From the NCBI GenBank assembly GCA_036274735.1, contig DASUFD010000124.1, positions 25,880-89,879 on the forward strand: DNA of 64,000 nucleotides, written 5' to 3'. This DNA is from Burkholderiales bacterium (lineage in GTDB: Bacteria > Pseudomonadota > Gammaproteobacteria > Burkholderiales > SG8-39). The position numbers and the translations under genes were made by a program. How positions within the stretch are numbered: the stretch's first letter is position 1; every line of letters begins with the position of its first letter. The notes under the pieces are model-generated. The model saw only the letters and a list, made by a program, of their open reading frames with translations, was not told the origin of the DNA and searched no databases. This document shows, one piece after another, positions 3,959 to 17,312 of this stretch.

Positions 3959-4864
3959 ATGACACGGCTGCTCGCCTTTTTCTCGTTGGCGGTCCTTGCG
4001 CCGGGTCACGCGCTCGCACAGGCGGTGAGCGATGCGGACCTGCAGAAGCGCGCCAATGCGGTGCTGACGCTTATGGGCTTCGCGCTCACACCCGACGTCA
4101 CCACCGGCTCGCTCTCGATCAGCGACCAGAGCGCCGGGAATCCGTATTTCCGTCAGACGTCGCTGAGCGGCGGAGGCACGCTGAGAGGCAGGCGCCTTTA
4201 CCTCGAGGGCACGCTGGCGTATGGACGCTACGACCCGACGTTCGCGAGCGACGCCGCGCCGATTCCCGTGAAGTGGGACAGCTTGCTCGCGACCGGCGGG
4301 GTCGGGTGGAATTTTCCGCTCGCGCCCGAGCTCGCGATCCGGCCGATCTTCAACCTCTCCCTCGGCCGGGTGGAAAGCGAGGCGAGCGTACCACCAGCCT
4401 CGGCCGCAACCCGCTCGACGATCGACTTCCTCAGTCATGGCGAGCTGAACGCCGGCGGGATCGGCGGCTCACTGATGCTCGACTACGCGCGCTACCGGCC
4501 CGAGAACGAGATCGACGCCGAGGTCCGCTACAGCAGCATCCACCTGCAGAGCTTCCAGAGCTCGAGCGCGGTGCAAGGCCACGCGCTCGCGCAGACGTTC
4601 TCCTTCTGGTCTCGCTATCGCGCGCCGACCGGCCACGTCGTCCTCGAGCGCCCGCTGCGCTACGTACTAGAGTACGCGCACAGCCGGTTCCTCGGCGATC
4701 TCGAAGGCGCGCTCGGCTTCGAGTACGTGAACTCGCTCGGTGCGGGCCTCGAGCTCGACACGAGCGCGCGCGACGCCTACGCCACGCGCCTGAGGCTGCT
4801 CGTGCGCTACAAGGTCGGCAACGACGTTACCGGCTGGGCCGTCGGGCTCGCCGCGAGCTTCTAG
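3959..4864 (+). CDS. outer-membrane beta-barrel protein, solitary autotransporter-barrel-like
   Basis: Sec signal peptide (..HALA-Q), amphipathic beta strands, C-terminal Phe (VGLAASF), no passenger domain. Confidence 0.65.
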   Translation: MTRLLAFFSLAVLAPGHALAQAVSDADLQKRANAVLTLMGFALTPDVTTGSLSISDQSAGNPYFRQTSLSGGGTLRGRRLYLEGTLAYGRYDPTFASDAAPIPVKWDSLLATGGVGWNFPLAPELAIRPIFNLSLGRVESEASVPPASAATRSTIDFLSHGELNAGGIGGSLMLDYARYRPENEIDAEVRYSSIHLQSFQSSSAVQGHALAQTFSFWSRYRAPTGHVVLERPLRYVLEYAHSRFLGDLEGALGFEYVNSLGAGLELDTSARDAYATRLRLLVRYKVGNDVTGWAVGLAASF

Positions 4865-6516: not shown

Positions 6517-7392
6517 ATGGCGAAAGTTGCATTCCTCGGTCTCGGCGTCATGGGCTATCCCATGGCGGGACACCTCCTGAAGAAGGGCGGCCACGACGTC
6601 ACCGTCTACAACCGCACCGCCGCCAAGGCGCAGCAATGGACGAAGGAGTACGGCGGAAAGCACGCGCCGACGCCGCGCGAAGCGGCGAAGGACTGCGACT
6701 TCGTCATGATGTGCGTCGGCAACGACGACGACGTGCGCTCGGTCGTCTATGGCGAGAACGGTGCGCTCGCGGGCATGAAGAGCGGCGCGATCCTCGTCGA
6801 CCACACCACGGCCTCGGCGATCGTTGCCAGGGAGGTTTTCCAGAAAGCAAAAGACAAGGGCATCGGCTTCGTCGACGCCCCGGTCTCGGGCGGCCAGGCG
6901 GGCGCGGTCAACGGCCAGCTCGGCATCATGTGCGGCGGCGAGGAAGCGGTGTTCGCCAAGGCGAAGCCGGTGATCGACGTGTACGCCAAGATGGCGGCGC
7001 TGATCGGCGGCCCGGGCGCTGGGCAGCTGACGAAGATGGTGAACCAGATCTGCATTGCCGGCCTGCTGCAGGGGCTCTCCGAAGGACTGGCTTTCGCCAA
7101 GAAAAGCAACTTGGACCTGGAAAAGGTGGTCTCGGTGATCTCCAAGGGCGCCGCGCAGTCCTGGCAGATGGAGAACCGCTGGAAGCAGATGAACGAGGTG
7201 AAGTTCGACGGCTTCGGCTTCGCGGTGGACTGGATGCGCAAGGACCTCGCCATCTGCCTAGAGGAGGCGCGCAAAAACGGCGCGCGCCTGCCGGTGACCG
7301 CGCTCGTCGACCAGTTCTACGGGCATGTCCAGGCGCGCGGCGGCCGGCGCTGGGACACCGCGAGCCTCATGCACCTCGTCATGAAGGATTAG
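6517..7392 (+). CDS. NAD(P)-dependent beta-hydroxyacid dehydrogenase (3-hydroxyisobutyrate/tartronate semialdehyde reductase family)
   Basis: FLGLGVMG Rossmann motif, DAPVSGG, catalytic KMVNQ, KDL motif. Confidence 0.9.
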   Translation: MAKVAFLGLGVMGYPMAGHLLKKGGHDVTVYNRTAAKAQQWTKEYGGKHAPTPREAAKDCDFVMMCVGNDDDVRSVVYGENGALAGMKSGAILVDHTTASAIVAREVFQKAKDKGIGFVDAPVSGGQAGAVNGQLGIMCGGEEAVFAKAKPVIDVYAKMAALIGGPGAGQLTKMVNQICIAGLLQGLSEGLAFAKKSNLDLEKVVSVISKGAAQSWQMENRWKQMNEVKFDGFGFAVDWMRKDLAICLEEARKNGARLPVTALVDQFYGHVQARGGRRWDTASLMHLVMKD

Positions 7393-10102
7393 CGAGCAGC
7401 GGCGCGGCGCTCAACGGCAGCGCCACGCGGAAGCAGGCGCCCGGCGCCGCGCCCCGCTCGACGAGCTCGAGCGAGCCGCCCAGGCCACGCATGATCTGCC
7501 AGCTGATGGCGAGCCCGAGCCCGGCCCCGCCGCTGCCGCTTTTCGCCTGCGCGCGGCCGCGCACGAACTTGGAGAAGATCCGCTCCCGCTCCTCGGCGGG
7601 AATGCCCGGGCCGTTGTCGGCGATCGTCACCTCGTAGCGCCCCTCGCGCACCGCGCTCGCGATGGTGACGGCGGGCGCCGGGCTGGTGTTGTACTTCACG
7701 GCGTTCGAGATGAGGTTGATGAACACCTGGCAGAGGCGGTCCTCGTTCGCCGCGACGGTCACGCCGCTCGCCCGCTCGGTACTGAGCAGCGCGACCCGCG
7801 TGCCGGCGAAGCCGCGGCACAGGCGCAGAGAGGCATCGAGCGCCGCCTCGGGATCGATGGTCTCGCGCGGCCACGGCGCTTCGCCGCGCTCGAGCAGGCT
7901 CAGGTCGAGCGTGCTGTCGAGGAGCCGCGTCAGGCGCACGCTCTCGTCGTGGATGATGCGCACGTAGCGCTGCGCGGTCCGCGGGTCGAGGTCGCGCGTC
8001 TCCATGAGAATCTGCGAGAAGGAGCGAATCGAGGTCATCGGCGTGCGCACCTCGTGGCTCACCTGGCTCAGGAAGTCGTCCTTTTCCTGGTCGAGGCGGC
8101 GCAAGCGCTCGTTGGCGTCGCGCAGCTGGCGCGCCGCGGCCTCGAGCTCGCTCGACTTCTCCTCGAGCTGGCGGCTGTGCTCGCGCATGCGCAGCGTGTC
8201 GTCGGCGATGCGCCGCAGCTCGTCGAGGCTGATGGTCTCGACCGTCACCGCCTCCGAGATCATGGTGCGCGCGGTGGCCGCCCCGACGCTGCCGGCGAGG
8301 CGCCGCTCGAGCTGGGTGATGAACGCGTCGTCGGCGATCGGCGGACCGTGCTCGAGGCCCTGCTCGTGCGCGGCGCGCTCGAAGAGCGCGCGCGCGGCGT
8401 CGGCGCCGAGGACGCGCTGCGCGAGCGCAAACAGGTGCTCGGGCGAGGCGCGGCGGCGGATCAGCCCCGCGCTCGCCTCGTCGGGGGTGCGGAACACGTC
8501 GACGAAGAGCGCGCTCTGCAGCCGCTCGATCGGCCGCGGCTCGCGCAGGAGCGAGATGCCGGCGAAGAGCAGGCAATTCGCCGAGAGGCTCCAGAAGAGC
8601 GAGTGCACGAGCGGATCGAGCCCGGCGAGCCCGAACAACGCGTGCGGACGCAGGAACGCGAGGCCGAGCGGCCCCTCGTGCAGCACGCTTGCCGAGAGCG
8701 CGACGTCCGGGCCGAGGCTCGGCAGGAAGAGGGTGTACGCCCAGAGCGCGGCGCCGGCTGCCAGCCCGGCGATCGCGCCGCCCGCGTTCGCGTTGCGCCA
8801 GAAGAGCCCGCCGACCAGGCTCGGCACGAACTGCGCCACGCCGGCGAAGGAGATGAGCCCGATCGCGGCGAGCGCATCGCCCGGGCCGCTCAGACGATAG
8901 TAGAGGAAGCCCAGCAGCAGCAGCACGGCAATGCTCACGCGCCGCGTGACGAGCAGGAAGCGGCGCATCTCCCCTGCGGCGTCGAGCGGCAGCCAGTTAA
9001 AGCGCAGGGCGAGCGGCACGACCAGGTGGTTCGAAACCATGGTGGAGAGCGCGATGCAGGCGACGATCACCATCGAGGTGGCCGAGGAGAAGCCACCGAG
9101 GAAGGCGAGCAGGGCGACGGCGTCCTGGCCCGCCCACATCGGCAGCGTCAGCACGAACATGTCCGGGTTCGAGCCCCTCGGGAGGAAGCTCAGGCCGGTG
9201 ATGGCGATCGGCAGCACGAACAGCGTGATCAGCAGCAAATAAAGCGGGAAGAGCCACGACGCGGTGCGCAGGTGGCGCTCGTCGGCGTTCTCGACCACGG
9301 TGACCTGGAACTGCCGCGGCAGGCAGAGCACCGCGACGCCGGACAGGAAGATGAGCGCCACCCAGCGCGCGCCGAACACGTCGGGCGAATGCAGCAACGC
9401 CGGTGCCCCCCGCGAGAAGCTGTCGGCCACGCCGTCGCAGATGCCGAAGACGACGAGCACGCCGACGGCGAGCAGCGCGACCAGCTTGACGACCGCCTCG
9501 ACGGCGATCGCAGCGACGACGCCGTGGTGGCGCTCCTTGGCATCGACGTTGCGCGTACCGAAGATGATGGTGAAGATCGCCATCCCGGCGGCGATCCAGA
9601 AGGCGGTATGGAAGTCGGCGCTAGCCGGCAGGCCGAGCGCGTTTTCCGGGCCCGCGGTGCTGATCACCTGGAAGCTCGTCGTCACCGCGCGCAGCTGCAG
9701 CGCGACGTACGGCGTCACGCCGATCACCGCGATCACCGTCACCAGCGCGGCGAGCGGCACGCTCTTGCCGTAGCGCGAGGAGATCATGTCGGCGATGGAA
9801 GTGATCCCCTGCGCGTGGCCGATGCGCACGAGCTTGCGCAACAGCACCCACCAGCCGGCGAACACCAGCGTGGGGCCGATGTAGATGGTCGCGAACTCCA
9901 GGCCGCCGCGCGCCGCGGAGCCAACCGCTCCGTAGAACGTCCAGGAGGTGCAGTAGATCGAGATCGAGAGGGTGTAAACGAGCGGCGAGCGGAGCCAGCC
10001 GAGACGGCCGGCGCGCGCGCGCCGATCGCCTGCGAACGCCACCGCGAAGAGCAGCGCCACGTAGGCGAGCGCGATCGGCAGGACCAGCTCGGCGGAGAGC
10101 AT
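7379..10102 (-). CDS. sodium:solute symporter (SLC5)-fused sensor histidine kinase (CrbS/CbrA-like)
   Basis: Start MLSAEL at 10102 (TAATG overlap). Polytopic N-terminus with YCTSWTFYG and LPRQFQV; STAC-like ERRLAGSVGAATAR; H-box SHEVRTP; N-box NLISNAVKY; G boxes DNGPG and GAGLGL. Confidence 0.92.
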   Translation of the reverse strand: MLSAELVLPIALAYVALLFAVAFAGDRRARAGRLGWLRSPLVYTLSISIYCTSWTFYGAVGSAARGGLEFATIYIGPTLVFAGWWVLLRKLVRIGHAQGITSIADMISSRYGKSVPLAALVTVIAVIGVTPYVALQLRAVTTSFQVISTAGPENALGLPASADFHTAFWIAAGMAIFTIIFGTRNVDAKERHHGVVAAIAVEAVVKLVALLAVGVLVVFGICDGVADSFSRGAPALLHSPDVFGARWVALIFLSGVAVLCLPRQFQVTVVENADERHLRTASWLFPLYLLLITLFVLPIAITGLSFLPRGSNPDMFVLTLPMWAGQDAVALLAFLGGFSSATSMVIVACIALSTMVSNHLVVPLALRFNWLPLDAAGEMRRFLLVTRRVSIAVLLLLGFLYYRLSGPGDALAAIGLISFAGVAQFVPSLVGGLFWRNANAGGAIAGLAAGAALWAYTLFLPSLGPDVALSASVLHEGPLGLAFLRPHALFGLAGLDPLVHSLFWSLSANCLLFAGISLLREPRPIERLQSALFVDVFRTPDEASAGLIRRRASPEHLFALAQRVLGADAARALFERAAHEQGLEHGPPIADDAFITQLERRLAGSVGAATARTMISEAVTVETISLDELRRIADDTLRMREHSRQLEEKSSELEAAARQLRDANERLRRLDQEKDDFLSQVSHEVRTPMTSIRSFSQILMETRDLDPRTAQRYVRIIHDESVRLTRLLDSTLDLSLLERGEAPWPRETIDPEAALDASLRLCRGFAGTRVALLSTERASGVTVAANEDRLCQVFINLISNAVKYNTSPAPAVTIASAVREGRYEVTIADNGPGIPAEERERIFSKFVRGRAQAKSGSGGAGLGLAISWQIMRGLGGSLELVERGAAPGACFRVALPLSAAPLLANPS

Positions 10103-10362
10103 TACGGCTCGCTCTGGCCGTCGCCCGGCGGCGCCGGCACCGCGAGCGCCCGCCCGAGGAGCGCCGCCGCGACGACCAGGCCGAGCCACACGGCGAAGAA
10201 GTAAAGCACGAGCAGCGGGACGCCGGCGACGTCGACCGGGACGGCGAAGAGCGTGATCAGCGGCGGCAGCACGAGGAAGAGGCCCGCGAGCGGCAGGAGG
10301 CGTGCCGCCTCGCGCACGCGCTGCAACCGTTCCGAGGGGTTGGTCAGCGGCTCGCTCGCCAC
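10102..10362 (-). CDS. small two-TM membrane protein coupled to the symporter-kinase
   Basis: 86 aa with two hydrophobic helices; its stop overlaps the kinase ATG. Confidence 0.75.
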   Translation of the reverse strand: MASEPLTNPSERLQRVREAARLLPLAGLFLVLPPLITLFAVPVDVAGVPLLVLYFFAVWLGLVVAAALLGRALAVPAPPGDGQSEP

Positions 10363-10366
10363 GGCG

Positions 10367-10735
10367 TCACCTCCCGACGAGGCGGCGCACCGCGCTGAGG
10401 ACGTCGGTGTTGGAGAACGGCTTGGTCATGAAGGCGGCGGCGCCGAGGCTCTCGGCCATGCGCCGGTCCTGCGGCTGGCCTTTCGCCGTCAGCACCATGA
10501 CCGGCAGCGTGCGCAGCGCCGGGTCGGCTTTCAAAAGCTTGAGCAGCTCGAAGCCGTTCCTCTTCGGCAGCATGACGTCGAGGACCAGGACGTCCGGCGG
10601 CGCGCTGCGCAGCCGGCGCAGCGCCTCCTCGCCGTCGAGCGCCGTCTGAACCTGGAAGCCGTCGCGGCTCAGCACGAAGCTCAGCGACTCGACGATGTTC
10701 GGATCGTCCTCGGCAATCAGCACGCGGATAGCCAC
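10367..10735 (-). CDS. single-domain response regulator (receiver only)
   Basis: GTG at 10735 after GGAGG. VLIAEDD, VLVLDVMLP (phospho-Asp), VLTAK, TKPF; about 122 aa with no output domain. Confidence 0.92.
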   Translation of the reverse strand: MAIRVLIAEDDPNIVESLSFVLSRDGFQVQTALDGEEALRRLRSAPPDVLVLDVMLPKRNGFELLKLLKADPALRTLPVMVLTAKGQPQDRRMAESLGAAAFMTKPFSNTDVLSAVRRLVGR

Positions 10736-10776
10736 GTCCCCGCCTCCTGCCACGAGTGTAGCGGCTTCGGCCGGCC

Positions 10777-12249
10777 TCACGCGCCGACGACCGCATCCTC
10801 CTGCCGGTATGCGCAGGCGCTGCGCGGGCAGATCCGGCAATGTGCACCGACCGGCAGCGCGGGCGCGGAGGACGAGAGGTCGAGGCCGTCCCCGTATACG
10901 GTCTGGTCGGCCTGCAGCGCGTCGCAGGCGAGCATGAGAGAAGCAACGCGGCGCGGCATGGGGAAAGCCGCGCCGCGCTTCTCGACCGAGCGCGCGACGA
11001 AGAGAAAGCGCTCGCCGCCCGGGAACTCGACGAGCTGGCGGACCACCGCCGAGGACGCGTGCAGGGCCTGATAGACGGCCCACAGCGGGCAGGCACCGCC
11101 GTGGCGCGGCAGCGGCAGCCGCGCCAGCGGAAAGCGCTTGGCAACGAATCCCGAGGCGTCGACGCACATCAGGCCGAAGGCGACCCCTTCGGCGCCGGGG
11201 CGACGCAGGGCGAGCAGCCTCCGGCACACCTGCTCGATGCTCGTGTCGAAGGCATTCGCGAGCGCGTCGACGTCGTAGCGCAGCCGACGCGCGGCGGCGA
11301 GGAACGCGTCGTACGGCATCAGCACGGCGGCCGCTACGTAGCCCGAGAGCGCACGATGTGCGCGGCGTCGCGCCGCGTCGCTGCGCAGAACGGGCGCGGC
11401 CGCTTCGGCGGCGAGCGCCTGCGCCGCGATGCGCTCGGCGGCGAGGCGCGCGAGGTCGAAGAGTCCCGCTTCCGCCGACACCGCCGCGCCGAGCCCTTCC
11501 AAATAGGCCTTGAGCCGCGGCGCTTCGGCCTTGCCCTCGACGCCGGCGGCCCCGCGAACCGCCTGCGCCGCTTCCTCGAGAGCCGGGAAGTAGTAGTTAT
11601 GGTCGAGAAGAAAATCATCTACGTCTCCGGCCGGGGTGTTCGAGCGCGCACCCCCGCGGTCGCTATGAAAGAACGCCGCGAGCGCTTGCGAGATCTCGCT
11701 CAGCCGGCGGCTCTCCCCGCCGATCATGGAAACGAACCGGCGTCGCTGATCGGCGCCCAGGTCCTCGACGCTCTCCAGGATCTCCGCCGCCGAGCGGATG
11801 GAGGCGATACGCGTGAGCAGGCTGTGCACCGCGTCGGCGAGGAACGGGTCCTGGGTGAGGCGGTCGGACAGCGCGCTCATCGCGCGCCCGCGCTCGAGCC
11901 ACGCACGATGCAGCAGCACCAGCGCGCGCGCCCACGATGCCCGCTGGCCCGCAAGCTCCGCGGCGCCGGCCGCCTGCAGGCCGAGCTCGGCGAGCAGCGG
12001 CTCGGCGGCGAGCTCGGCTAGCTCCGCCATCAGGCGGCGCTCGGTCGCGCCATCGAGCTCGTCGATCGAAAGCCCGAGCGCGTCGGCGATGCGCTTGAGA
12101 AGGGCGCCGCCGATGTTGCGCTTACCCGCTTCGATGAGGTTCAGGTACGAGGCGGAGATGCCGAGCTGCGCGGAAAGGGCCGCCTGCGTAACGCCGACCG
12201 CGCGGCGGCGCTCACGGATCTTGGGTCCTACGAGGCGGGCGGGCGTCAT
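10777..12249 (-). CDS. XRE-family short-chain fatty acyl-CoA regulator (ScfR/PrpR/RamB type) with internal HisKA-like segment
   Basis: N-terminal HTH QAALSAQLGISASYLNLIEAGKR; C-terminal GGACPLW and CRICPRSACAYR. Start could be 12249 or 12267. Confidence 0.88.
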   Translation of the reverse strand: MTPARLVGPKIRERRRAVGVTQAALSAQLGISASYLNLIEAGKRNIGGALLKRIADALGLSIDELDGATERRLMAELAELAAEPLLAELGLQAAGAAELAGQRASWARALVLLHRAWLERGRAMSALSDRLTQDPFLADAVHSLLTRIASIRSAAEILESVEDLGADQRRRFVSMIGGESRRLSEISQALAAFFHSDRGGARSNTPAGDVDDFLLDHNYYFPALEEAAQAVRGAAGVEGKAEAPRLKAYLEGLGAAVSAEAGLFDLARLAAERIAAQALAAEAAAPVLRSDAARRRAHRALSGYVAAAVLMPYDAFLAAARRLRYDVDALANAFDTSIEQVCRRLLALRRPGAEGVAFGLMCVDASGFVAKRFPLARLPLPRHGGACPLWAVYQALHASSAVVRQLVEFPGGERFLFVARSVEKRGAAFPMPRRVASLMLACDALQADQTVYGDGLDLSSSAPALPVGAHCRICPRSACAYRQEDAVVGA

Positions 12250-12422
12250 GCGCGGCAGATGCTGCAATGCAAGGTCGAAAATAAACTGCCTTTGCTAAAG
12301 CGATGTGAAGGATACACAAAAATCTTTCGCTCTCTCAATGTGATGTTGCGTTCTTTACACTCGTCGGTGACCATCATTGCAAGTTGCGCCGCCGCGCAGC
12401 CCACATTCACCGAGGAGGAGTA

Positions 12423-13769
12423 ATGAGCGACATCATCAAGGATGCGCGCCGCCGCCAGATGTTGAAGGCAAGTGCGCTGCTTGGCGCCGGCATCGCCGCG
12501 CCGTCTCTTTTCGTTCCGCGCCACGCCTGGGCGGCCATGCACCCCCCGATTGGCACCTGGCCGGCCGGCGTGCAGGGCGGCACGGTCTACATCGGGGCGG
12601 CCGTTCCGCGCACCGGCACCTATGCGGTGCAGGGCGAAGACGAGCTCAAGGGCATGCAGCTCGCCGTAGAGCACATCAACCAGGGCCACGAGCTTGCGCA
12701 CAAGATCGCGCCGAAGCTGCAGAAGGGCGTGCTCGGCAAGCAGGTCGAGCTGGTCGTCGCCGACTCGGGCGCGAAGCCGAACGAGGCGGTGCAGGCGCAG
12801 CAGCGCTTCATCAACGAGAACAAGATCATGGCCATGACCGGCTCGACCTCGAGCGCGGTCGCCGTGGCGCTGAACAAGTTCGCGCAGCGCGAGAAGGTGC
12901 TCTACCTGGTGGCGATCTCCGGCTCGAACGACACCACGGGCAAGGACTGCGCGCGCTACAGCTTCCGGCAGTGCTTCTACGGCGAGACGGCGGCGAACGC
13001 GATCGGCCCGGTGCTCGTCAAGGCCTACGGCAAGAACAAGAAGGCGGCGTTCATGACGCCGGACTACACCTACGGCCATACGGTGACCAAGTCGGTCAAC
13101 GACTACCTGACCGAGCACGGCGGCTGGAAGATGGTCACGAACCAGGTCTCGCCGCTCGGTACGCAAGACTTCAGCTCATACCTCACCAACATCGCCAACT
13201 CGGGCGCCGACGTCATCGTCAACGTGAACTGGGGCCGCGACGCGGTGCTGTCCATCCAGCAGGCGAAGCAGTTCGGCTTGACGCCGCGCATGAAGATGGT
13301 GGTCCCCTACCAGATCCCGTTCCTCGCGAAGGAAACCGGCCCCGAGCTGACCGAAGGCGTCTACGCCGCCACCGACTTCTGGTGGACGCTGGAGGACAAG
13401 TTCCCGCTCGCCAAGATGTTCGTGGAGGCCTTCGACAAGAAATACGGCTACAAGCCGGAATGGGGCGCGAACAACGCGTACATGCAGTTCACGATCTGGG
13501 CGCGCATGGTCTCCGAGGCGGGCTCGTTCTACCCGCCGGACGTCATCAAGGCCTACGAGAAAGGCGAGGAGTTCGACTCGACGGTCGGCAAGGTGCACTT
13601 CCGCAAGGAGGATCACCAGCTCGTGCGCCCCGTCGTCATCGTGCGCGGCAAGTCGCCGAAGCAGATGAAGAACAAGGAGGACTACTGGGAGGTGCTCGAC
13701 GTGCTGCCCGGCGCGCCCCTCATGCAGAAGCCCGACGCGTTCGGCTGCAAGCTCGGCGACTACACCTAG
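12423..13769 (+). CDS. Liv/HAAT-family ABC transporter substrate-binding protein with Tat signal
   Basis: ATG 12423 after GAGGAGGAG; ARRRQMLK twin-arginine signal; PRTGTYA, GSTSSAVA, DYTYG motifs. Confidence 0.9.
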   Translation: MSDIIKDARRRQMLKASALLGAGIAAPSLFVPRHAWAAMHPPIGTWPAGVQGGTVYIGAAVPRTGTYAVQGEDELKGMQLAVEHINQGHELAHKIAPKLQKGVLGKQVELVVADSGAKPNEAVQAQQRFINENKIMAMTGSTSSAVAVALNKFAQREKVLYLVAISGSNDTTGKDCARYSFRQCFYGETAANAIGPVLVKAYGKNKKAAFMTPDYTYGHTVTKSVNDYLTEHGGWKMVTNQVSPLGTQDFSSYLTNIANSGADVIVNVNWGRDAVLSIQQAKQFGLTPRMKMVVPYQIPFLAKETGPELTEGVYAATDFWWTLEDKFPLAKMFVEAFDKKYGYKPEWGANNAYMQFTIWARMVSEAGSFYPPDVIKAYEKGEEFDSTVGKVHFRKEDHQLVRPVVIVRGKSPKQMKNKEDYWEVLDVLPGAPLMQKPDAFGCKLGDYT

Positions 13770-13783
13770 AAAGGCACTGACCT

Positions 13784-13856
13784 CGTCGTCCCCGCGCAGG
13801 CGGGGACCCAGTTCTGGTTTCCGAAAGACTGGGTTCCCGCTTTCGCGCGAACGACC
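13784..13856. repeat. inverted doublet of CGTC-type REP-like palindromes
   Basis: CGTCGTCCCCGCGCAGGCGGGGACCCAG plus an inverted degenerate copy GGTCGTTCGCGCGAAAGCGGGAACCCAG. Confidence 0.75.
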
Positions 13857-13874
13857 TTTGGGGGCCGTTCCCGC

Positions 13875-14750
13875 GTGATCACCTGGGGCAACTTCTTCTC
13901 GCAGCTCTTCAACGGCCTCGCGCTGGGGGCGCTGCTCGCGCTCATCAGCTCGGGGCTGACGATCATCTATGGCACGCTCGGGGTGCTGAACCTCGCGCAC
14001 GGCGCGATGTTCATGCTCGGCGGCTACGCCGGCTACGTCGCATACCAGTACACCGGCTCGTTCGTGCTCGCGGTGATCGCCGGGACCCTGTTCCTGCTGG
14101 CTGTCGGCATCGTGATGGAGCGCGTGGTCATCCGCCACTTCTACAGGCGCCCGCCCGAGGACCAGCTGCTCGTCACCTTCGGCCTCGGCATCGTCTATGT
14201 CGAGACCGTGCGCTACTTCTTCTCCAGCCTGTCGAAGATGGTGCCGGCGCCCAAGCTCTTCGCCGGGATCACCAATCTCGGCTTCATGTTCTACCCGACC
14301 TATCGCCTTGCGGTGGTCGGCATCGTCGCGGCTGCGCTGATCGCGCTCTTCCTGGTGCTGTACAAGACGCGTCTCGGCCTCATCGTGCGCGCCGGCATCG
14401 AGGACTCCGTCATGGTCGATTCGCTCGGCGTGAACGTCGACCGGGTATTCATGCTCGTCTTCGGCATCGGTGCCATGGCGGCCGGGTTCGCCGGGATCGT
14501 CAACGCGCCGGTGGTTTCCCTCGCGCCGGACATGGGCGAGGCGATCCTGGTGCAGACCTTCGTCGTGGTGGTGATCGGCGGGGTCGGCTCCTTCCCCGGC
14601 GCCGTGCTCGGCGGCCTGATCGCCGGCGAGATCATCAGCATCACCTCGATGTTCAACCCGGGCTACGCGTACGTGATGCTGTTCGCGGCGATGACGCTCG
14701 TGCTGATGCTGCGGCCGCACGGCCTCCTCGGCGTTAAAGGACGCGAATGA
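13875..14750 (+). CDS. branched-chain amino acid-type ABC permease (LivH family)
   Basis: GLTIIYGTLGVLNLAHG, TRLGLIVRA, VVVIGGVGS. Confidence 0.92.
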   Translation: MITWGNFFSQLFNGLALGALLALISSGLTIIYGTLGVLNLAHGAMFMLGGYAGYVAYQYTGSFVLAVIAGTLFLLAVGIVMERVVIRHFYRRPPEDQLLVTFGLGIVYVETVRYFFSSLSKMVPAPKLFAGITNLGFMFYPTYRLAVVGIVAAALIALFLVLYKTRLGLIVRAGIEDSVMVDSLGVNVDRVFMLVFGIGAMAAGFAGIVNAPVVSLAPDMGEAILVQTFVVVVIGGVGSFPGAVLGGLIAGEIISITSMFNPGYAYVMLFAAMTLVLMLRPHGLLGVKGRE

Positions 14751-14772
14751 CCGCCAAACGGCGAGGCCGGGA

Positions 14773-16620
14773 ATGAACGCCGACCGGCTCGGCAATACGC
14801 AGCGCCCTTTCCTCGTCGAGGCGCTCACGCTCGCCGCGCTGATCGCCGCGCCGTTCGTGCTGCCCTACCTGAACGCGGCGCCGGATACGGTCAATCGCAT
14901 CCTCGTCTGGGGCATGCTGGGCATCGGCTTCGACATCCTGTTCGGCTACACGGGGCTGCTCTCCTTCGGCCAGTCGGCGCTCTACGGCACGGGCGGCATG
15001 GTCGCGGCCTACCTGCTCGTCACGGCGGGCTTCCCGCACGTCGTGACGGCGCTTCTCATCGGCATGGTCGTCGCCGCTGTGGTCGGCTACCTGGTCGGGC
15101 TGGTCGCGCTGCGCCGCACAGGGATCTACTTCGCCATGATCACGGTGGCGATCGCCGAGGTCTTCTTCTTCATCGAGTTCAATCCGCTCTCGCAATGGAC
15201 GGGCGGCGAGAACGGCCTGCCGGGCGTGCCGGCGCCGAGCCTGCACCTGGGCTTCACCACGCTGCGGTTCACGCGCGGCTGGGACCTCTATCCCTTCCTC
15301 GCGTTCTTCTACTTCATCGGCATCGTCATCGCGCTGCGCATCGTGCGCTCGCCGGTCGGCGCGATCTTTCGGGCGATCCGCGAGAATCCCCTGCGCGCGG
15401 CCGCCGTGGGGCACAACATCCACGCCTACAAGCTCACGGCCTTCGTCATTGCCGCAGCCTACGCCGGCCTCGCCGGCGGCCTGCTCGGTGTGATGCAGGG
15501 GTTCATGCCGCCGGATGCCTTCATGTTCGAGACCTCCGGGCAGCTCATCATGCAGACCGCGATCGGCGGCATCGGCACGCTGTTCGGTCCGCTGGCGGGC
15601 GCGGCGGTGTGGCTCTTCCTGCAGGATTTCCTGCAGTCCACGCTCAACCTCGGCGCGACCTGGAAGCTCGTGCTCGGCGTCATCTTCGTGCTTCTCGTGT
15701 TCTTCCTGCGCCAGGGCATCATCGGCGGCATTCGCGACCTCGTCGCGCTCGTCCGCGGCAAGGCCGCCGCCCGGCGCGCGGCGCAGGCGCCGCCCGCGCC
15801 GCGCGCCCCTGCCGCGCCGGCGCATCGCAGTCCCGCGCATCGCTTCTCCGGACCGATCCTCGAAGCGCGCGGCCTCTCCAAGCACTACGGCGGCGTCACG
15901 GCGAACGCCGACATCGAATTCACGGTAAACGCCGGCGAGCTGCACGGCATCATCGGCCCGAACGGCGCCGGCAAGACGACGCTCTTCAAGATGCTCACCT
16001 GCGAGGTGCCGCCGAGCTCGGGCACGATCCGCTTCGAGGGTCGCGACATCACCGGCATGAGCGTCACCGACGTCTGCCAGCTTGGCCTCACCAAGAGCTA
16101 CCAGATCAACCAGCTCTTCAACCGCCTGACCGTGCGCGAGAACATCATCATCGCCGCGCTCGCCGAGCTGCGCGGCAAGTTCCGCCTCGATCTGATGCGC
16201 AGTCTCTCGAGCGTGCCCGGGCTGCGCGAGCACGTCGACCACAGCCTCTCCCTGGTCGACCTCGGCGCGCGGCGGGACACGCCGGTCTCGCAGCTCGCCT
16301 ACGGAGAGAAGCGCCGCCTGGAGATCGGCTTGGCGCTCGCCGCTTCGCCCACCCTGCTCCTCCTCGACGAGCCGCTCGCCGGCATGAGCCCGCGCGAGCG
16401 GACCGAAACCGTGCGGCTGCTGAAGTCGATCGCCCAGGGGCGCACGATGATCGTCATCGACCACGACATGGACGCGCTCTTCGAGCTCGCCGAGCGCGTC
16501 ACCGTCATGCACCAGGGGCGCGTCCTCACCGAGGGCACGCCCGAGGAGGTCAAAAGCAACGCGGAGGTGCAGGAAGCCTACCTGGGCGGCGTGCACGAGT
16601 CGGCGGAAAAGGTCGCATGA
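14773..16620 (+). CDS. fused LivM-type permease / LivG-type ATP-binding protein
   Basis: GYTGLLSFGQ and TGGENG permease motifs; Pro/Ala linker; GPNGAGKT, LAYGEKR, LLLLDEP. Confidence 0.92.
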   Translation: MNADRLGNTQRPFLVEALTLAALIAAPFVLPYLNAAPDTVNRILVWGMLGIGFDILFGYTGLLSFGQSALYGTGGMVAAYLLVTAGFPHVVTALLIGMVVAAVVGYLVGLVALRRTGIYFAMITVAIAEVFFFIEFNPLSQWTGGENGLPGVPAPSLHLGFTTLRFTRGWDLYPFLAFFYFIGIVIALRIVRSPVGAIFRAIRENPLRAAAVGHNIHAYKLTAFVIAAAYAGLAGGLLGVMQGFMPPDAFMFETSGQLIMQTAIGGIGTLFGPLAGAAVWLFLQDFLQSTLNLGATWKLVLGVIFVLLVFFLRQGIIGGIRDLVALVRGKAAARRAAQAPPAPRAPAAPAHRSPAHRFSGPILEARGLSKHYGGVTANADIEFTVNAGELHGIIGPNGAGKTTLFKMLTCEVPPSSGTIRFEGRDITGMSVTDVCQLGLTKSYQINQLFNRLTVRENIIIAALAELRGKFRLDLMRSLSSVPGLREHVDHSLSLVDLGARRDTPVSQLAYGEKRRLEIGLALAASPTLLLLDEPLAGMSPRERTETVRLLKSIAQGRTMIVIDHDMDALFELAERVTVMHQGRVLTEGTPEEVKSNAEVQEAYLGGVHESAEKVA

Positions 16621-17312
16621 GCCTGCTCGAAGTCGACCGCCTCAACAGCTACTACGGCGACTCGCACATCCTCTTCGACGTCGCGCTGCGCGTCGAGAAG
16701 AACGAGGTCGTCGCGCTCCTCGGCCGCAACGGCGCGGGCAAGAGCACGACGCTGAAGAGCCTGATGGGCGTCGTGACCCCCCGCACCGGCTCCGTGCGCC
16801 TCGACGGCCACGAGCTCGCCGGGCGCAAGAGCCACGCCATCGCCCGCGCCGGCATGCAGCTCGTGCACGAAGACCGGCGGATCTTCAGCCTGAACGTCGA
16901 GGAGAACCTCGTCCTCGCCGGCCTCACCGCGCCCCGGAGATGGCCGCTCGAGCGCATCTACGAGATGTTCCCGCGCTTGCGGGAGCGGCGAGCGAGCCGC
17001 GGCACCGACCTCTCCGGCGGCGAGCAGCAGATGCTCGCGATCGCCCGCGCCCTCATCCGCGACCCGAAGATCATCCTCCTCGACGAGCCCTTCGAAGGCC
17101 TCGCGCCGACGATCGTCCGCTACCTGATGGACGCCTGCCGCGAGCTCGTCGCCGCCGGCCAGACGATCGTCATCGTCGAGCAGAACATCGCCGCCACCCT
17201 CGCCCTCGCGAGCCGCGCCTACATCATCAACAACGGCCACATCGTGCACGAGGGACCCGCCTCGGAGATCCGCGGCAAGCCCGAGGTGCTGCAGCGCTAT
17301 CTAGGCGTCTAG
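16617..17312 (+). CDS. LivF-type ABC ATP-binding protein
   Basis: ATG 16617 overlapping the upstream TGA; GRNGAGKST, LSGGEQQ, ILLDEP. Confidence 0.93.
   Translation: MSLLEVDRLNSYYGDSHILFDVALRVEKNEVVALLGRNGAGKSTTLKSLMGVVTPRTGSVRLDGHELAGRKSHAIARAGMQLVHEDRRIFSLNVEENLVLAGLTAPRRWPLERIYEMFPRLRERRASRGTDLSGGEQQMLAIARALIRDPKIILLDEPFEGLAPTIVRYLMDACRELVAAGQTIVIVEQNIAATLALASRAYIINNGHIVHEGPASEIRGKPEVLQRYLGV

Follow-up and report, generated by a model that had tools for sequence, protein, structure and literature searches.

How might a lone receiver, which has no DNA-binding domain of its own, reach a promoter? The question is raised by positions 7379-17312 of a 64,000-nucleotide stretch of DNA from a Burkholderiales bacterium (GenBank assembly GCA_036274735.1, contig DASUFD010000124.1), the whole of which is called the window here. 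A transporter-like histidine kinase, a receiver and an ScfR-family transcription factor are encoded together, divergently from an ATP-binding cassette (ABC) importer. The answer suggested by our analysis is that the receiver docks on a segment inside the transcription factor that derives from the dimerisation and histidine phosphotransfer (DHp) domain of the kinase family. The features are as follows.

7379..10102, minus strand: SLC5-STAC histidine kinase of 907 residues, with a transporter-like membrane domain, STAC, a coiled region, DHp and a catalytic domain
10102..10362, minus strand: two-helix membrane hairpin of 86 residues, a probable CbrX relative, whose stop overlaps the kinase ATG
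10367..10735, minus strand: single-domain receiver of 122 residues, D53 phosphoacceptor motif intact
10777..12249, minus strand: regulator of the XRE helix-turn-helix (HTH)/ScfR family, 490 residues, with an MtPrpR fold, four iron-sulphur cysteines and an eroded coenzyme A (CoA) pocket
11665..11847, minus strand: DHp insert within the regulator (residues 135-195, with His142), of SLC5 kinase DHp origin and the predicted receiver docking site
12278..12374, plus strand: shared promoter region, with a degenerate copy of the family's TT(T/G/C)ACA direct-repeat layout
12423..13769, plus strand: Liv-type periplasmic binding protein of 448 residues, with a weak match to a twin-arginine translocation signal
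13875..14750, plus strand: LivH-type permease
14773..16620, plus strand: LivM-type permease fused to a LivG-type ATPase
16617..17312, plus strand: LivF-type ATPase

Open reading frames (ORFs), translations and Pfam place the minus-strand genes in the order regulator (12249-10777), receiver (10735-10367), hairpin (10362-10102) and kinase (10102-7379), with intergenic gaps of 41, 4 and -1 bases, and the plus-strand run (12423-17312) encodes the binding protein, a permease, the permease-ATPase fusion and an ATPase. Contigs from other soil runs span 7153-11382 in one case and 11777-12863 in another, so that the gene order is not an artefact of assembly. An initial annotation of this DNA had described the same layout and had noted that a DNA-binding response regulator is missing; both statements hold, since ORFs and Pfam reveal none within 7379-17312.

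The regulator matches HTH_3, Peptidase_M78 and ScfRs above the Pfam cut-offs (its 490 residues being counted from the ATG), and with its XRE HTH, IrrE-like and ScfR C-terminal domains and its MtPrpR fold (match to PDB 6cyy, E=2.6e-19) it belongs to the ScfR proteins, the classes of which were reportedly defined by Carter and Alber in 2015. It scores 250.6 bits against the RamB model NCBIfam NF038139, below the cut-off of 700. The predicted model has a mean pLDDT (predicted local distance difference test) of 92 and consists of an MtPrpR-like body and an insert of two helices, 135-160 and 166-195; correspondingly, the regulator profile aligns with MtPrpR on both flanks and skips about 65 positions between them. 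The insert comes just before the helix that holds Phe155 in MtPrpR; on one side of it is the DNA-binding half, on the other the helix with which the ligand-sensing half begins. In PMC6765138, Phe155 is proposed to transmit ligand binding to the DNA-binding heads. The equivalent position is Ala in the window regulator, and Ala or Val in 44 of 98 representatives.

Several comparisons bear on the origin of this insert. Pfam HisKA matches regulator residues 136-189 at E=2.7e-4 and 21.4 bits, under the cut-off of 26.9, while HHalign aligns the insert with the window kinase at a probability of 98% (E=1e-13), 20 of 62 residues being identical to the kinase DHp. When the PDB was searched with the insert profile, HK853 (E=1e-6) and DivL (2e-5) were among the matches. 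A profile of the insert only (96 rows) gave the two SLC5 kinases of the genome 59.7 and 59.2 bits, and the other 24 kinase-like ORFs scored, in a genome where 29 were found, at most 12.4. In a tree of 54 DHp columns, SLC5 kinases, regulator inserts and the exonuclease segments considered below stand together against 20 other kinases (support 86). Because profile, HHalign, PDB matches and trees agree, the insert, which has both the sequence and the two-helix fold of a HisKA-type DHp (Pfam score below cut-off), is a copy from the SLC5 kinase family; the DHp that had been assigned to the regulator at the outset is therefore real. A FastTree phylogeny of the C-terminal domain without the insert (123 rows) has one change of insert label, with a support of only 74, and the insert was probably gained once.

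What such a domain could do in a transcription factor is suggested by structure prediction. Two copies of regulator residues 62-200 with the receiver gave a complex score of 0.71, compared with 0.01 for the best of three controls, and so passed a threshold that 116 of 157 solved pairs and 2 of 215 mismatched ones attain, figures that carry over only roughly to the receiver-regulator case. At least 94% of contacts recur between runs, the partner pLDDT is at least 87, and the receiver takes the standard kinase-receiver pose on the insert, where A149, S150, S153, A154, E156, I157 and F172, and also residue 175, contact receiver helix 1 and residues 104-110. These predicted contacts coincide with the most conserved residues of the insert. 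Counting from the histidine (H), Ile at H+15 is found in 95, Ser at H+11 in 90 and Arg at H+10 in 87 of 96 diverse homologues (two of 98 rows were left out as gapped at the His site). The docking face is thus better conserved than the histidine, which is present in 81 of the 96, in 118 of 120 close homologues and in 29 of 36 alphaproteobacterial loci (35 from genomes in the class to which the Roseinatronobacter genome G043 belongs, plus one from G045; neighbours of these loci were counted within the fetched stretch). Since the docking face outlasts the histidine, and since a second partner described below has none, docking is favoured over phosphotransfer, with the insert as the predicted site at which the receiver docks.

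A phosphorelay from kinase His683 by way of receiver Asp53 to His142 of the regulator, in which phospho-His would switch DNA binding and of which the last step would have been lost or rewired in His-less lineages, is an unlikely alternative. In its favour, His-Asp transfer on a DHp is reversible, the histidine is retained in the proportions given, Thr or Ser stands at H+4 in 85 of 96 inserts and residues 141-143 fall within the predicted interface. The canonical H-E/D-x-R-T-P box is not seen in the inserts, Glu being found at H+1 in 19 of 96 and Pro not being among the residues listed for H+5. In 15 of the 96 diverse homologues and 7 of the 36 loci the histidine has been replaced, by Tyr, Phe, Gln or others in scattered branches, and L104, L116, L119 and L120 among these still hold kinase, receiver and transporter. 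Its loss from otherwise intact loci is an argument that binding can suffice. The route from kinase through receiver to regulator that the initial annotation had drawn is consequently supported in its predicted receiver-regulator contact and weakened in its phosphotransfer. Retention of the histidine in most homologues would fit a relay or a phosphatase role; were His142 phosphorylated, a DHp histidine rather than a receiver aspartate would be the residue on which this transcription factor is switched.

The second partner is found in the same genome. Its other SLC5 kinase (G000:C107:9153-21370, L091) lies in a cluster of acs, DUF4212, ActP, hairpin, kinase, receiver, PAS-exonuclease and DUF294 genes, and the exonuclease fusion there is the only other protein of the genome matched by the insert profile (37 bits). 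PAS-exonuclease fusions flank receiver and kinase in many loci that lack the regulator, and the histidine is missing from their DHp segment in 19 loci, two of them gapped at the site. As regulator and exonuclease fusion both carry the DHp, two unrelated outputs share the docking surface of the kinase family. In the C107 protein, a membrane PAS-exonuclease, the His-less DHp segment is followed by about 170 residues without a Pfam match, which may be a decayed kinase catalytic domain, and a DUF294-CBS gene comes next. DHp-like segments of the same family without the histidine box were also noticed in nearby ORFs at L117:14870-15997, L138:15007-16008 and L139:6940-8199, possibly further receiver-controlled outputs.

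The presence of a second output also bears on an improbable arrangement in which the influence runs backwards or sideways, the insert being a phosphatase or sink for the receiver or a partner of the kinase DHp, so that the ligand state of the regulator tunes another output such as the exonuclease. Thr or Ser at H+4, which is tied to phosphatase activity in HisKA kinases, is kept in the inserts; the C107 cluster supplies a second kinase, a receiver and a pseudo-DHp exonuclease, and 3 of the 36 regulator loci have an exonuclease as well. At the other 33, however, none lies in the fetched stretch, and the regulator, its CoA pocket being eroded, has little else as input to pass on. Moreover, judging from Glu at position 16 (25 of 34 regulator loci against 0 of 14 exonuclease-only loci, kin not being independent), the receivers at regulator loci form a subtype of their own. 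Pairing of kinase and output at H+11 was tried as a further discriminator and rejected, as it did not cleanly separate the two outputs.

We found 80 loci with the regulator. In the 11 closest, the regulator faces a Liv binding protein in every case and kinase and receiver are kept in 10. Full-length matches to an insert-centred profile occur in at least 35 of 301 alphaproteobacterial genomes (G043 included, 12 candidates scored per genome), in 3 of 301 from the class to which the window belongs and in 2 of 71 from its genus. Kinase and receiver are nearby at 31 of the 36 alphaproteobacterial loci, a divergent transporter at 33 (28 Liv-type, 5 SSS/ActP-type) and all three at 29, so that the four genes and the divergent importer co-occur widely. 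The five regulators without a nearby kinase belong to genomes that each hold the kinase elsewhere. Linkage of regulator and kinase persists over several gene orders and two classes, and the patchy presence in the genus suggests that the cassette has spread by transfer. The cassette is real and widespread, and apparently uncharacterised: neither a DHp-bearing ScfR nor wiring of kinase, receiver and ScfR was described in the literature searched, a search that did not extend to subscription papers and bioRxiv supplements. The one mention there is a sentence in PMC10370305 on an ScfR, Pden_1785, clustered with a two-component system, which that paper did not study.

This recurrence is difficult to reconcile with the idea that the insert is a dimerisation coil or a relic and the regulator an ordinary one-component ScfR, with kinase and receiver as mere neighbours in a carboxylate-uptake cluster. 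That idea draws on the 5 of 36 loci with no kinase in the fetched stretch, on L005, which has none within about 8 kb downstream, on the full CoA pocket of 40 of 79 representatives and on the HisKA score below the Pfam cut-off. We consider it very improbable, because the conserved residues of the insert form the receiver-facing surface and the insert resembles only the kinase family to which it is linked, a linkage that outlives changes of gene order and class.

Some individual loci deserve mention. At L005:9986-18827 an insert-bearing regulator and a Liv importer occur with neither kinase nor receiver downstream, and the next genes resemble those of the benzoyl-CoA (box) pathway, the Pfam match being to an AMP-binding enzyme. 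Two lone receivers, one by the regulator and one by the kinase, are present at both L003:11518-15481 and L101:6627-14399. The sole plasmid match, L172 (Neorhizobium sp. SOG26, a record of 1.17 Mb), has an insert-bearing regulator adjoining a Liv binding protein. An apparent regulator-receiver fusion, P0018 (one of 120 listed homologues), reads at its junction as a frameshift through the intergenic stretch; it is probably an artefact and was not used as evidence of fusion.

The ligand pocket of the regulator was scored for the CoA contacts listed in PMC6765138. Of 79 insert-bearing representatives, 40 retain all four scored contacts, as against 41 of 43 without the insert (kin not being independent), with about 15 changes on the tree. 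MtPrpR F240, H319, K217, R338, K347 and K410 correspond in the window regulator to F, R, a deleted region, C, K and R, the counterparts of K217 and K410 having been read off the alignment by hand; two scored contacts are lost, plus the strand region that holds a fifth, Lys217. The iron-sulphur cysteines C387, C471, C474 and C479 are kept, here and in 120 of 120 close homologues. The proposal made at the outset, that the external signal is integrated with internal acyl-CoA status, is weakened by this: some members of the family may integrate the two, but for the window regulator this is doubtful. Separately, stepwise deletions that remove the strands making subunit contacts in MtPrpR were seen in the IrrE-like domain of insert-bearing regulators (P0007, P0008, P0015, P0017, P0178, P0180 and others), in 30 of 90 representatives with the insert and 0 of 43 without.

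In 47 divergent regions, near-duplicates included and 4 loci dropped where the gene start was not located, TT(T/G/C)ACA occurs on the transporter strand in 112 copies, spread over 45 regions, compared with 12.9 +/- 2.9 in shuffles, at spacings mostly of 31-33, 40-42 and 8-10 bp. A matrix trained on 36 alphaproteobacterial regions recovered this register in six betaproteobacterial-type regions held out from training, where 0-1 of 200 shuffles scored as high; scanning the genome with it yielded no further convincing sites. The TTTGCAAA box, classical for PrpR/PccR, has 0 copies in the 47 regions. ScfR sites are described as two near-identical boxes in PMC10370305, and we infer that the regulator binds the TT(T/G/C)ACA boxes. 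The window has a weak box at 12313 and an exact TTTACA at 12354. A candidate minus-strand promoter found by promoter scan at 12338-12309 overlaps the former, and a candidate plus-strand -35/-10 pair at 12346/12369 was assigned by eye only. In about eight regions the last box lies, also by eye, between a plausible -35 and -10, and from the position of this one box it might be guessed that repression is relieved by the signal.

Kinase residues 7-616 align with residues 10-589 of chain A of PDB 10ed (E=4e-73), which we take to be the SLC5-STAC structure of CbrA, and Pfam matches HisKA and HATPase_c. His683 lies in HEVRTP and the N, G1, F and G2 boxes are all present, so that alignment and residues together identify an SLC5 domain, STAC and a HisKA kinase, as defines the SLC5-STAC histidine kinases. 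Pfam SSF does not match the window kinase and does match its C107 paralogue; neither a PAS domain nor a C-terminal receiver was found in the window kinase by Pfam. Response_reg is the sole Pfam domain of the receiver, which has D53, T83 and K105. The kinase ATG overlaps the TAA of the upstream gene, the hydrophobic ORF of 86 residues, which has no Pfam family. Of the 80 kinase genes inspected, among which some loci figure twice, 76 have a hydrophobic ORF of 50-115 residues ahead of them. Among 177,635 PDB sequences the top match of the hairpin profile is 10ed chain X, of 58 residues, with an E value of only 0.035. In being a small two-helix membrane peptide, in the overlap with its neighbour and, if just at E=0.035, in its sequence, the hairpin agrees with CbrX, of which it is probably a relative. 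According to PMC13022988, CbrX forms a hairpin that binds the SLC5 domain, and growth does not require it.

All four ABC proteins score under the NCBIfam equivalog cut-offs for both Liv (LivKHMGF) and Urt (UrtABCDE), so that 'Liv-type' names the fold and not the substrate. Binding proteins at most loci are just 34-40% identical to that of the window, and one that is 71% identical lies with its Liv operon on a Bradyrhizobium plasmid without the kinase-regulator cassette. The importer is exchangeable between loci. As the partner named by the initial annotation it co-occurs widely but is not fixed, 5 of 36 regulators facing an SSS/ActP-type symporter instead. At four of the 36 loci acs follows the importer, and at one DUF4212-ActP is the divergent unit, both of which speak for a small carboxylate. 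Solved structures gave no guide to the ligand of the binding protein, the nearest matches being distant and uninformative, and a supposed match to a D-lactate transporter of Phaeobacter was dropped for lack of support in the literature searched. For the relatives CrbS and RpuS, acetate and pyruvate are the compounds served (PMC9100948), again in favour of a small carboxylate, and DUF4212 symporters have been linked to lactate and D-alanine (10.1101/072470). A C2-C4 organic acid is, by a small measure, the favoured substrate.

Between the binding-protein and permease genes, at 13781-13855, there is a long inverted repeat (fold about -49 kcal/mol for 13779-13872), similar to palindromes on at least 13 other contigs; it resembles repetitive extragenic palindromic elements and could stabilise the binding-protein mRNA. 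Elsewhere in the window, between alaS and recA (3959-4864), an ORF of 301 residues has a signal-peptide-like start and a C-terminal Phe, and resembles an outer-membrane barrel.

Taken together, we give a probability of about 0.58 to a path that leads from the kinase through docking of the receiver on the DHp insert to a changed hold of the regulator on its promoter boxes, and so to importer expression. A small organic solute is the likely signal for the kinase, on which the hairpin presumably packs as CbrX packs on CbrA, and the kinase in turn likely determines whether the lone receiver is phosphorylated. The receiver would then dock on the insert, and once docked would likely alter the grip of the regulator on the boxes of the shared promoter. 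Binding alone, as in DivK-DivL, could carry the signal without phosphate on His142, and in eroded lineages, including that of the window, the receiver may have largely replaced acyl-CoA as input. Homology, conservation, gene order and one structure prediction are what point to the docking link.

A number of observations weigh against this path. The passing complex score may show mere likeness to solved kinase-receiver complexes, and the controls were unrelated proteins rather than other receivers. The histidine is retained (81 of 96 and 118 of 120 homologues) beyond the expectation from drift alone, so that a chemical role for His142 is possible. Inserts are barely closer to their own kinase than to others (0.403 against 0.382 over 38 loci, kin not being independent) and exonuclease segments show no matching to their own kinase. 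The box layout of the window is weak (score 0.8, matched by 3 of 200 shuffles), as it is in L012 and L014, and the register fails in L013 (163 of 200 shuffles) and L026 (32 of 200). The promoter scan listed 12338-12309 on the minus strand and no plus-strand promoter. Acetyl-CoA synthetase is held by only 4 of the 36 loci and other neighbours vary (68 proteins scanned, most from 119 listed), while one Paracoccus supplement file with acetate expression tables has no Pden_177x-179x row, orthology being assumed; this variety, the missing rows and the DUF4212 link to lactate and D-alanine count against acetate specifically.

If the docking path is right, it is likely a new route linking two-component signalling to gene expression. 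Most single-domain receivers have no known output; here the partner can be recognised in the sequence, as it bears the kinase's own docking surface, and the presence of such a surface in a partner offers a searchable rule for other orphan receivers. There is an even chance, in our estimation, of a more general principle for SLC5-STAC kinases with bare receivers, by which outputs acquire the DHp of the kinase and become receiver-controlled, and which would have operated at least twice: in the regulator, with repeated loss of CoA sensing, and in the PAS-exonuclease beside DUF294 and ActP. The cassette also suggests which partner the exonuclease gene of acs-actP clusters, long without an explanation, may have. 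Being common, with at least 35 of the 301 alphaproteobacterial genomes searched carrying it, and standing opposite uptake systems in lineages of soil and water, the cassette probably governs the use of a common small substrate.

Compared with the SLC5-STAC systems CbrA/CbrB, CrbS/CrbR (MxtR/ErdR) and RpuS/RpuR, the window system has the same kinase architecture, and its hairpin gene overlaps from upstream as that of CbrX does, but DNA binding is here the task of an XRE/ScfR protein into which a kinase-derived segment is inserted. By alignment the Na2-site lysine of CbrA is kept (K206 in the window, K196 in CbrA), and CbrA has a PAS domain and acts through a sigma-54 activator, CbrB (PMC13022988), whereas no PAS was found in the window kinase and its partner is a bare receiver. 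Transporter genes are likely targets, as for RpuS/RpuR; in that system and in CrbS/CrbR the kinase has PAS and a C-terminal receiver and the partner is of LuxR type (PMC9100948), again unlike the bare receiver here. With MtPrpR, RamB and PccR the regulator shares the XRE HTH, the IrrE-like and GAF-like domains and the C..CX2CX4C iron-sulphur ligands. Its gene is also divergent from the likely target, with direct-repeat boxes of the sort that PMC10370305 reports for ScfR sites. It differs from MtPrpR in its 61-residue DHp insert and its eroded CoA contacts. DivL, which has Tyr in place of the DHp His, as do several inserts, is among the PDB matches of the insert profile; it is a membrane pseudokinase that controls another kinase, while the DHp insert, unaccompanied by a catalytic domain, is embedded in a transcription factor. 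In DivK-DivL of Caulobacter a lone receiver likewise acts on a DHp-type surface by protein-protein interaction (PMC12471899). Like that of the window, the clusters of acs, DUF4212-ActP, DUF294 and exonuclease represented by C107 have a kinase of the same family, a hairpin and a lone receiver; their DHp-bearing partner is instead a membrane PAS-exonuclease fusion without the histidine, and it is their kinase type that is common in the window's genus, the regulator occurring in 2 of 71 genomes. The parts of the system come from known families, and what appears to be new, from its sequence and predicted structure, is a kinase-derived docking domain inside a transcription factor.

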